Source: Methanocaldococcus jannaschii DSM 2661 (GTDB taxonomy: Archaea > AGJL01 > Methanococci > Methanococcales > Methanocaldococcaceae). From it: a stretch of DNA of 32,000 nt. This document shows positions 2-2,235 of this stretch, piece after piece. The number at the start of each line of letters is the position of its first letter. The stretch's first letter is position 1. The notes below the pieces were generated by a model. The model worked only from the letters and a program-made list of their open reading frames with translations. It was not told the origin of the DNA and did no database searches. The DNA lies in contig NC_000909.1 in the NCBI RefSeq assembly GCF_000091665.1, positions 242,871 through 274,870 of the forward strand. Direction: 5' to 3'. The position numbers were made by a program, and so were the translations under genes.

Positions 2-826
2 AATTGCTATAAATCAAAATTCTATGGTATTGAAACACACAGATGTATTCAATGCACACCATCAGTTATTTGGTGTCAGCAAAATTGTATATTCTGCTGG
101 AGAGTTTTACCAAGGGATATAGGTATAGATATAAGCCAAATTAAAGAACCAAAATGGGAAGAGCCAGAGGTTGTATATGAGAAAATTTTAGCCATGCATA
201 AAAGAATAATTATGGGTTATGCTGGAGTGTTAGATAGAGTTGGAGAGAAGAAATTTAAAGAGGCTTTAGAGCCAAAGCATGTGGCAATATCTTTATCAGG
301 AGAGCCAACACTTTATCCATACTTAGATGAGTTAATAAAGATATTCCATAAGAATGGATTTACAACATTTGTTGTTTCAAATGGAATCTTAACTGATGTT
401 ATTGAAAAAATAGAGCCAACTCAACTGTATATCTCATTAGATGCCTATGATTTGGACAGTTATAGAAGAATATGTGGGGGGAAGAAAGAGTATTGGGAAA
501 GTATCTTAAATACCTTAGACATTTTAAAAGAGAAGAAGAGAACTTGTATAAGAACTACTTTAATTAGGGGCTATAATGATGATATCTTAAAGTTTGTAGA
601 GCTCTATGAAAGAGCTGATGTCCATTTCATTGAGTTAAAGTCATATATGCACGTTGGTTATTCTCAAAAAAGATTAAAGAAAGAGGACATGCTACAACAT
701 GATGAGATATTAAAATTAGCTAAGATGTTAGATGAAAACAGCTCATACAAATTAATTGATGACAGTGAAGATAGTAGAGTGGCGTTATTGCAAAATGAAA
801 ATAGGAAAATCAACCCGAAACTTTAA
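2..826 (+). CDS. taw1: tRNA 4-demethylwyosine synthase Taw1/TYW1 (radical SAM), 5' end outside window
   Basis: The frame is open from nt 2, so the ORF-track start at 194 is internal. The upstream part reads CIQCTPSVIWCQQNCIFCW, containing a CX3CX2C radical SAM motif. The remainder matches archaeal Taw1 as I remember it (MJ0257). Stop TAA at 824-826. Confidence 0.85.
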   Translation, partial: NCYKSKFYGIETHRCIQCTPSVIWCQQNCIFCWRVLPRDIGIDISQIKEPKWEEPEVVYEKILAMHKRIIMGYAGVLDRVGEKKFKEALEPKHVAISLSGEPTLYPYLDELIKIFHKNGFTTFVVSNGILTDVIEKIEPTQLYISLDAYDLDSYRRICGGKKEYWESILNTLDILKEKKRTCIRTTLIRGYNDDILKFVELYERADVHFIELKSYMHVGYSQKRLKKEDMLQHDEILKLAKMLDENSSYKLIDDSEDSRVALLQNENRKINPKL

Positions 827-829
827 TAA

Positions 830-905
830 AGTTTCATCAAAGCTAACATCTCTGCCAAAGGCAGAGGTGTAAATGGGGTATCCCAATAGGGCGAAGCCCT
901 ATGGT
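830..905. repeat. Small hairpin-containing intergenic element between two copies of the taw1 3' end
   Basis: Hairpin 1 at 846-870: 11 bp stem with one G-U, core CTCTGCC-AAA-GGCAGAG. Hairpin 2 at 886-902: ATAGGGC-GAA-GCCCTAT. The region is locally less AT-rich than its flanks. Its left end TCATCAAAGC (834-843) resembles the end of the palindromic element at 23340-23447. Confidence 0.6.
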
Positions 906-963
906 TGTAAAATGAAAATAGAAAGATAAATCCAAAGATTTTTGAATAATTATTCTATAGTGG

Positions 964-2166
964 TTATTTTATTTTTTCTCTAAGAATAACTAAAGAGTCT
1001 CTCTTTATCTTATTTTCATCATAACTCTTAATATACCCCCCATTTAAATAATTTAGCAACTCTTTTCCAATTTCCCCAACAAATATATATCGGCAGTTAA
1101 ATCTCTTTAAAACTTCAGATAGCTTTTTTACATCAATTTCTTCGCAAACAATTCCAAAGTCCCCGCCAATATAGATATCTCCACCAAATACTTCTAAAAA
1201 ATCTTTTATAGCGTAGGAAATAGCTTTTACATCTAAGCCAGGGTTGATATTTTTAACTAAAATTTTTTTATTTATCTCTTTAATTTCCATTCTATTTTTT
1301 ATGGTGAAGGTTTTTAATCTATATCTTATCTCCTCCATATCAACCAAATTTTTACAAATCTCTATAGCAAATAACGAATTTTCTACAAAATGTAATCCAA
1401 AGATGTTCTTGCTGAACTCAAATATTTCATCAAAGTATTTAAATTTTAGAGGATACTTATCTAAAATCTTTGCCCTATCTACATCAACAACATTTAGGCA
1501 TTTATGGTTTATATTTAAGTCATATCTATTAATATCTCTCTTATTTATAAAAGATAACTCAGCATTTTTTAAAGAACTAAACTTTGCAGTTAATGCATCC
1601 TTTCTCCCACCAGCTATTTTATAATTTTCTAATACATTTGTTATAGCTCCATATTTGCATTTAATTAATCCTAAAGATGTTTCAAATATAAAAAAGTCAT
1701 ATTTGTCAATATCTAAACTATTTAAAACCTTTAAAATAGTTGGTGGAGCTATAGAGCCAAAATTTGAGTTGTGTAAGTAAGTTGAATATTTATCTTTCAA
1801 AATATGGTTTATTAAAGAGGTTGTTGTTGTCTTTCCCTTAACTCCTGTAACATTAATTATTTTTTTATGGATATTTCCAAACTTCTCCTTTAATATTTTA
1901 GATACAGCATCTGTAAATGGGATAAAATCAACATCTATTGGGCAGTGTATTGGGGCTATAACTCTATCATATTTTTCAAAATTTGGCTGTTCAAAAAATA
2001 GATTTAACTTATTTCCAAATTTTTCTTTTAATTTTTGATATTTAACTTTAAAATCTTCTGATTTTTTTATTTTTTGGTAAATATCCCATACATCAACTTC
2101 ATATCCTAAATTTAAATATTCCTCAGCCAATGTTAAAGCTCCATGATTAACATCAATAATCAACAT
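964..2166 (-). CDS. Mur-ligase family protein (possibly coenzyme F430 synthetase CfbE-like)
   Basis: P-loop GVKGKTTTTS is typical of the Mur ligase central domain. This organism lacks pseudomurein, so the CfbE role is inference. Start moved to ATG 2166 (MLIIDVNHG), which follows a GGTG SD-like site; the track start at 2178 is GTG. Confidence 0.6.
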   Translation of the reverse strand: MLIIDVNHGALTLAEEYLNLGYEVDVWDIYQKIKKSEDFKVKYQKLKEKFGNKLNLFFEQPNFEKYDRVIAPIHCPIDVDFIPFTDAVSKILKEKFGNIHKKIINVTGVKGKTTTTSLINHILKDKYSTYLHNSNFGSIAPPTILKVLNSLDIDKYDFFIFETSLGLIKCKYGAITNVLENYKIAGGRKDALTAKFSSLKNAELSFINKRDINRYDLNINHKCLNVVDVDRAKILDKYPLKFKYFDEIFEFSKNIFGLHFVENSLFAIEICKNLVDMEEIRYRLKTFTIKNRMEIKEINKKILVKNINPGLDVKAISYAIKDFLEVFGGDIYIGGDFGIVCEEIDVKKLSEVLKRFNCRYIFVGEIGKELLNYLNGGYIKSYDENKIKRDSLVILREKIK

Positions 2167-2235
2167 AAAAAACACCACAAAAAAGAGATTTTTATTAAAA
2201 TTAAAATTTTATTAAATTAAATAATATCCAATCAG

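Follow-up and report, generated by a model that had tools for sequence, protein, structure and literature searches.

The stretch of DNA analysed here (the window, 32,000 nt of the Methanocaldococcus jannaschii DSM 2661 chromosome) corresponds to C1:242871-274870 of the source genome, G000, which comprises 1,739,927 bp in three contigs. At its left edge lies a taw1-like gene whose last codons are found twice, on either side of a hairpin element. The gene end at 788-826 reads ttg caa aat gaa aat agg aaa atc aac ccg aaa ctt taa, and at 905-949 the sequence ttg taa aat gaa aat aga aag ata aat cca aag att ttt gaa taa is found, the offset between the copies being 117 nt. The initial annotation of the window had read both sequences and their distance in the same way. 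In the following, the upstream copy, which belongs to the translated gene, is called the live copy and the downstream one the displaced copy, and alleles with and without the element are called filled and empty, respectively. The stop codon of taw1 is today the TAA at 824-826, directly followed by a second TAA at 827-829. The Pfam match to Wyosine_form extends to residue 265 of the 274 translated, and what is repeated is therefore the tail of taw1 past its last domain. As shown by the sequence and by the relatives, the element supplies the present ending of taw1, and the resident ending has been displaced by 117 nt and is untranslated. The features of the locus are collected in the table.

Table. 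Features at the 3' end of the taw1-like gene (window positions).
Feature	Position	Strand	Description and source
taw1-like gene	2..826	+	5' end outside the window; ORF (open reading frame) listing; Pfam Radical_SAM 7e-20, Wyosine_form 1.5e-21
Live copy of the taw1 end (D1)	788..816	+	TTGCAAAATGAAAATAGGAAAATCAACCC, encodes LQNENRKINP
Element module H0	817..845	+	Hairpin GAAACTTT-AAT-AAAGTTTC (817-835) and linker ATCAAAGCTAA; fold
Element module H1	846..870	+	GC-rich hairpin ACATCTCTGCC-AAA-GGCAGAGGTGT; variant of the CACCTCC...GGAGGTG module; fold
Element module H2	876..904	+	GGGTATCCCAATAGGGCGAAGCCCTATGG; 3' end directly adjoins the displaced copy
Displaced copy of the taw1 end (D2)	905..933	+	TTGTAAAATGAAAATAGAAAGATAAATCC; first 11 nt, including the TAA change, common to the displaced copy of G011
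Remainder of the resident, now untranslated C-terminus (..K I F E, stop)	934..949	+	Runs into the native downstream flank
Mur-ligase-like gene, convergent with taw1	964..2178	-	ORF listing and Pfam

A composite of the first two modules, GAAACTTTAAnAAAGTTTCATCAAA..CTAACACCTCC...GGAGGTGTAAATT, was found repeated at C1:164.5k, 763.7k and 1621.6k with an identical 5' end, and the same element 5' end (GAAACTTTAA...) was found in other copies in G000. Because the composite copies share this 5' end, we placed the start of the element at 817. With this start, the true duplication of taw1 comprises 29 nt, 788-816 versus 905-933, and contains five differences, four synonymous third-position changes and the stop-creating change CAA>TAA. 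H0 contributes the final G of the CCG triplet for Pro, then the codons AAA CTT (K L) and lastly the TAA stop codon of taw1. Six synonymous differences over the nine codons NENRKINPK had been counted in the initial annotation; the count holds, but two of the six (ccG and aaA) are element bases mimicking codons, and the duplication proper has four. When repeats of at least 26/33, located 45-420 nt apart, were counted, 872 were found on the real chromosome versus 2-5 in block-shuffled copies. We concluded that the repeat of the taw1 end is not due to chance. Translation of the displaced copy, be it by read-through, in-frame insertion or bypass, was ruled out by the two stop codons at 824-829 and the one at 908-910.

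The insert at taw1 is 88 nt long and consists of hairpin modules only, without an ORF. Folded as single-stranded DNA, positions 812-906 reached -23.7 kcal/mol (z = -7.8), with main hairpins at 817-835, 846-870 and 886-902 and a small stem at 874-885. The hairpin at 817-835 is AT-rich and overlaps the taw1 stop codon; the other two are GC-rich. Two GC-rich hairpins had been described for the spacer before, and both are present (846-870 and 876-904), but the AT-rich hairpin has to be added as a third. A genome-wide BLAST search, proposed together with the idea that the spacer belonged to the palindromic repeats known in many copies from M. jannaschii, gave 40 matches for H2, several of them 100% identical, and the spacer is not unique. 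Pattern matches on C1 were far above the shuffled sequence for all three modules: 51-82 versus 2-6 for H2, approx. 64 versus 13 for H0 and 38 versus 0 for H1. The termini of the element, GAAACTTT... and ...CCCTATGG, are not inverted repeats of each other; the latter end is precise and the other end is modular. A scan of positions 600-1200 against Rfam at E<=10 gave chance-level matches only (best E-value 0.61). We concluded that 817-904 is a single member of a Methanocaldococcus family of hairpin repeats that are modular and encode no protein. This family probably corresponds to the MJRE palindromic repeats, to which it was likened by description.

The taw1 locus was recovered in 15 congeners by a genus-wide search. 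In 12 of these the gene has a single end without hairpins, and a metagenome contig (L070) is empty as well. Nine of the empty genomes (G001, G002, G005, G006, G009, G010, G012, G013 and G014) show one gene end in the codon table, and G003, G004 and G015 carry single but more diverged ends without hairpins. The empty ends read ...NENRKINPKIF(E/N) before the stop codon, the exceptions being ...NPKLI in G012 and ...NPKIFEE in G006. Besides M. jannaschii, the element was found at taw1 only in G011 and in two G011-like metagenome contigs, L068 and L069. In G011 it sits at the same nucleotide as in G000, after CC. From AATAGG on, the live copy of G000 is identical to that of G011, L068 and L069, and from AATAGG through H0 all 49/49 bases are identical between G000 and G011. 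The gene bodies of these two genomes diverge by 12% overall and 28% at third positions, compared to 9% and 21% between G000 and G013/G014. The displaced copies of G000 and G011 open with the same TTGTAAAATGA, and both contain the C>T change making TAA. From there the two loci part. The native end of G013/G014 is identical to window positions 911-943, that is to the displaced copy, at 33/33 bases, and the Mur-ligase-like gene is also the syntenic downstream neighbour in G001, G013 and G014; in G006 extra DNA intervenes. The displaced copy of G011 is decayed: it has lost 1 nt, shows an N>D change and continues into a G012-type end (CTT ATT .. TAG) and the G012-type downstream gene, which in both G011 and G012 is another gene than the Mur-ligase-like one. 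H2 is truncated at taw1 of G011 and intact in G000, and approx. 6-8 of 30 positions of H1 differ between the two, including a compensatory T-A to C-G exchange and a wobble. Such compensatory change of the hairpin stems could reflect selection on structure or conversion of modules by other family copies. When metagenomes were scanned for alleles of the taw1 end, the live haplotype was not detected in any lineage as the native sequence of an empty allele.

In the taw1 tree G000 groups with G006, G001, G013 and G014, and G011 groups with G012 and G002. All of these partners are empty, and the filled state therefore occurs in two non-sister genomes. The ancestral state of taw1 is empty, because all empty lineages keep the conserved tail, which accordingly does not derive from a long-untranslated relic. 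The two filled alleles are of one origin, since the junction nucleotide and the derived T are common to both. The displaced copy represents the C-terminus that was resident and ancestral (...IFE before the stop codon), as supported by its 33/33 identity to the native end of G013/G014 and by its continuity with the syntenic downstream gene of this clade. Several earlier suggestions are borne out by these comparisons. The downstream copy had been proposed to have evolved as coding sequence, and it did so because it had served as the functional end of the gene before the element came in; it had also been called a displaced alternative or ancestral C-terminus, and the empty relatives mostly end in ...NPKIF(E/N). 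The alignment across congeners that was recommended at the time returned insert-free alleles in 12 of them, with ..PKIF(E/N) as the ancestral end. Taken together, filled alleles of a single origin sit in non-sister genomes and are followed, beyond the first 11 nt of the displaced copy, by sequence of each genome's own clade, and for this reason we consider the M. jannaschii allele to be a recombinant. It probably arose when a filled allele of another lineage and the resident empty allele recombined within the end of the gene (probability roughly 0.68).

According to this recombination model, a filled allele from a Methanocaldococcus lineage like G011 would have been exchanged with the resident insert-free allele inside the approx. 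29-nt gene end. The resident parts would be the gene body through ..AATGAAAAT and everything rightwards of approx. 916, including the downstream flank. The foreign unit would consist of the distal live copy, the element and the initial 4-11 nt of the displaced copy; the stretch in common with the G011 lineage runs from AGG (803) through the element to approx. 908-915, which equals one 117-nt period. The exchange points could be mapped to a stretch of approx. 14 nt. The copies would differ only synonymously since each had served as a working gene end in its own lineage. Such a product would be expected from Campbell-type ('ends-in') integration of a [gene-end copy + element] unit by a single reciprocal exchange; two crossovers confined to the repeat would lead to the same product. 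The element encodes nothing, and the host homologous recombination machinery is therefore assumed to act. The hyperthermophilic archaeon Sulfolobus acidocaldarius recombines short, moderately diverged DNAs with patchy mismatch resolution (PMC3367456), which makes a host-recombination route credible, and we regard a single exchange as a plausible mechanism. The original duplication probably took place earlier, in the G011 lineage, at the 6-nt microhomology AAACTT between the element 5' end and the native gene end. The native end of the G011 lineage, CCA AAA CTT ATT as in G012, offers this AAACTT, and the M. jannaschii clade is without it. Because of this microhomology and the decayed relic, the G011 lineage looks like the older holder of the element at taw1.

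The same layout was found at a second gene end, only 1.1 kb upstream of taw1 and just before the window. At the end of the comE-like gene (C1:242565-242723, corresponding to locus L001:696-854) a live end is followed by a module-b hairpin with H2 and by a displaced end, and the period is again 117 nt. The element and the live end (..GGAGTTAAACATAGATT, G011/G012-type) are common to G000 and G011, the displaced copy and the long spacer of G000 are G006-like, and upstream of the repeat G000 resembles its own clade. G001 carries other modules at the same site. As a separate observation, three swapped pairs distinguish the module-b stem of G000 (L001) from that of G011 (L002; GGGGC/GCCCC to GCCCC/GGGGC). 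A further locus, C1:1626945 (to 1627096), follows the same pattern: the native G006 sequence equals the displaced copy of G000 at 4/4 sites, the live copy of G011 equals that of G000 at 3/4 sites, and the elements are of the same module type. The orthologues of this locus in G014 (L005/L017) and G002 (L211) contain only a reverse-oriented H0-type hairpin and then a displaced end copy, and in G014 the AAC GGT haplotype is found in the displaced and not in the live copy.

Complete open C-terminal frames, with mostly synonymous differences, are retained by the displaced copies at C1:129443 and C1:645969. In G000 the former (C1:129443-129628) is a full open frame, GYITVARVPPKPLDKEEKEDKKENE followed by a stop codon. 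The gene 3' end at C1:129443 is moreover an insertion hot spot among the orthologous loci L038-L049. Different module sets are found there in G000, G001, G002, G009, G010 and G011, at or near ..CCAG(T)|CCATAGG.., and the site is empty in G006, G014 and G005. At some loci the 3' end of the element (..AGCCCTATGG) is microhomologous to the bases immediately preceding the live copy (AGCCCT.. at C1:1446246-1446430 and ..TATGG at C1:1626945), which hints at a microhomology-guided origin of the duplication.

In a frame-blind scan of G000, approx. 40 (42) hairpin inserts bracketed by unique local repeats of 17-66 nt were recovered. At these approx. 40 loci the bracketing repeat is each locus's own gene end, and a constant attachment (att) core is absent. 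For 31 gene 3' ends of G000, the live copy was compared with the displaced one by codon position, and 1.2 Mb were scanned in G001. The differences at codon positions 1/2/3 amounted to 21/14/75 in G000 (68% at third positions; p = 9e-14 against a null of 1/3 and 8e-7 against a generous null of 45%) and to 8/3/34 in G001 (76%). At every 3'-end locus the stop codon lies inside the live copy or at most 10 nt from the element start, and the displaced copies are therefore not translated with the gene. Neutral decay of a relic would load derived states mostly onto the displaced copy. With G001 as the outgroup, 37 derived states were assigned to the live and 39 to the displaced copies. We concluded that the allele-like nature of the copies is established for the whole family. 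The long-duplication signature is uneven among species: the G005 chromosome (L071-L147) contains 40-66 H2-type modules, as G000 does, yet only approx. 6 bracketed inserts, a number too small for G005 to serve as a replicate. The distance between the copies is a multiple of 3 at 23/42 loci in G000, and at 16/28 gene 3'-end loci (p ~0.003-0.008), compared to 5/13 in G001 and 2/7 in G005. An in-frame periodicity, by which the distance of 39 codons at taw1 would be meaningful, was rejected and the excess treated as chance, because it is absent in G001 and G005 and no locus is translated through the element.

Other histories of the taw1 locus were weighed against the exchange of alleles. The element might have inserted in situ in the M. 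jannaschii lineage and duplicated approx. 29 nt of taw1, after which the copies diverged by synonymous drift in the live copy and relic decay in the displaced one. The family does create duplications, as many of its copies are bracketed by perfect or near-perfect repeats (35/35 at C1:459181), and the two taw1 copies of G011 differ in the manner of a decaying relic, by an indel and a non-synonymous change. In G000, however, the relic is the sequence native to G013/G014 at 33/33 bases, and relative to it all four synonymous changes are found in the constrained live copy. The non-sister G011 has the same junction nucleotide and the same TAA change, and family-wide 68-76% of the differences are at third positions with the derived states evenly split between the copies. 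An in-situ origin is on these grounds quite improbable. Somewhat better, although still unlikely, stands an ancient insertion in the ancestor of both clades, with repeated precise loss and with a displaced copy in G000 that was 'refreshed' by recombination with empty alleles. By sequence alone its end product is the same as that of a cassette transfer. Direct repeats readily give rise to deletions, by which the gene would become intact again, and several sites are filled in many genomes by differing module combinations, as at C1:129443. On the taw1 tree, however, at least five independent precise losses would be required, and the same conserved protein tail in every empty lineage implies that these ends were never long-term relics. 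The refreshing tract would also have to begin no more than approx. 10 nt from the element and leave no trace in a flank that is only approx. 80% identical to G013/G014, and an identical coincidence would be required at the comE-like site.

Two further explanations were given very little weight. The initial annotation had considered an att-like scar with a gene end from a foreign lineage. The second part of this proposal is supported, as the live copy and the element are common to the non-sister G011, but the part concerning att sites and an integrase is not, as there is no ORF and no att core and the recombinase genes are distant. In its full form, a larger integrase-bearing element, like e14 at icd, would have brought a replacement taw1 end and later been deleted almost completely. 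The arrangement, in which a foreign end is live and an insert separates it from the displaced resident end, is indeed that of e14 at icd/icdC (PMC13626634). The insert, however, consists of standard multi-copy hairpin modules only, the layout recurs at approx. 40 loci with differing local repeats and no constant att core, and integrase remnants are lacking, the only two tyrosine recombinase genes of G000 being located far from taw1 at C1:333.7k and 691.0k; we consider this scenario extremely unlikely. Hardly more probable is that the hairpins are a resident functional RNA or terminator in the 3' untranslated region of taw1 and that the second gene end is an unrelated tandem duplication. The very stable fold, the one compensatory change in H1 between G000 and G011 and the position between convergent genes would fit such a role. 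Against it, the hairpins are missing at taw1 in 12 congeners, a credible Rfam match was not obtained (best E-value 0.61), and the modules are dispersed repeats at unrelated loci.

Several observations weigh against the recombination of a filled with an empty allele, or at least against its simplest form. The exchange intermediate and the enzyme acting on it are hypothetical and were assumed. Since H1 and H2 differ, G011 was not itself the donor, or other copies of the family have since converted the modules. The identity of 49/49 bases partly spans H0, which may be conserved family-wide, and takes in just five third positions of the live copy. AAA ATC AAC, the haplotype of this copy, is also native in G001, and synonymous sites alone therefore name no donor clade. 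At one codon G000 has GAA in both copies (797-799 and 914-916) and G011 has GAG in both; this site misfits one crossover with a G011-identical donor, and heteroduplex repair or a slightly different donor is needed. A test of the exchange order across the family gave 49:36 (p = 0.21) and 42:11 (p = 0.009), which amounts to a trend only, and with a distant outgroup no signal was detected. The number of G011-like sites in taw1 of G000 is 12, 4 of them within the repeat, and equals the 12 found in G001, without any excess. A long-heteroduplex transfer that left donor patches in taw1 was ruled out, as a surplus of G011-like sites was not observed in G000.

For annotation, the result means that the real Taw1 C-terminus of M. 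jannaschii (..PKL) is element-encoded, while the consensus of the genus is ..PKIFE. A wider reading, which we put forward tentatively and hold to be possible rather than probable, is that [gene-end copy + element] units spread between Methanocaldococcus species and integrate by a single reciprocal, homology-driven exchange in the last 10-20 codons of a gene. If this were true, a non-coding repeat of 88 nt could enter the coding end of an essential-type gene harmlessly, because it brings a working substitute end with it. The species barrier would be crossed without a recombinase of the element's own, a mode of spread undescribed for prokaryotic miniature elements, and the build-up of repeats exactly at the tight gene junctions of a compact genome would be explained. 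The displaced 'relics' would then be snapshots of the recipient allele at the time of entry, and the pairs of live and displaced ends would serve as natural markers of gene flow among hydrothermal-vent methanogens.

Miniature inverted-repeat transposable elements (MITEs) and similar small bacterial or archaeal repeats (Correia/NEMIS, RUP, ERIC and the Sulfolobus MITEs; PMC2229807) resemble the taw1 family in being small, non-autonomous, structured and multi-copy, in their position at gene boundaries and in the in-frame fusion of some of them to ORFs. The ends of MITEs, however, are terminal inverted repeats that match an insertion sequence, and their target duplications are short and fixed in length, whereas the taw1 family is without such ends and its repeats vary from 17 to 66 nt. 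A MITE identity was ruled out, as terminal inverted repeats are absent and the duplications are long and variable. The REP/REPIN (RAYT) and IS200/IS605-derived elements are likewise hairpin-based, protein-less repeats in intergenic DNA, but they depend on a Y1 (HUH) transposase and insert without duplicating the target, while duplications are present here. A profile search of G000 with Y1_Tnp (PF01797) gave no match, and control genomes responded. A REP/RAYT-type identity was ruled out by the duplications and by the lack of a detectable Y1/HUH transposase in G000.

The closest counterpart in structure is formed by the MJRE1-3 repeats of the same genome, which are approx. 100 nt long, palindromic, hairpin-forming and multi-copy (Suyama, Lathe & Bork, FEBS Lett 2005;579:5281; as cited in PMC2229807 and PMC2996958). 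They are mostly located at gene boundaries and at times fused to coding sequence; here the last taw1 codons and the stop codon come from the element. Our BLAST search, pattern counts and fold found the taw1 element to be both dispersed in multiple copies and palindromic at approx. 100 nt. The abstract by Suyama, Lathe and Bork from 2005 reportedly mentions neither long, variable, allele-like gene-end duplications nor sharing between species. As far as we can tell, we are thus dealing with an MJRE-type repeat that has a property apparently undescribed for its family.

With respect to this property, the closest counterpart is the cryptic prophage e14 at icd/icdC of Escherichia coli K-12 (Hill et al. 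1989). As summarised in PMC13626634, the incoming e14 DNA carries a replacement 3' end that goes live, and the resident icd end is displaced and untranslated, with mainly synonymous or conservative changes between the two. The taw1 element is alike in that the incoming copy is the live end and the resident end is displaced, and excision would recombine both copies. This type of replacement end was found at taw1 and likewise at two more loci, the comE-like gene and C1:1626945. The prophage comprises approx. 15 kb, with its own site-specific recombinase and one fixed attachment site, whereas the element described here has 88 nt and is gene-free. Unlike at e14, the gene end that brackets the element is a local one and changes from one family copy to the next, and the exchange must use homology and host enzymes. 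Our results suggest that such hairpin elements pass between species by recombining within gene ends, and if this is true they would be the counterpart, at a scale of 100 nt and without an integrase, of those prophages that bring along a substitute gene end.

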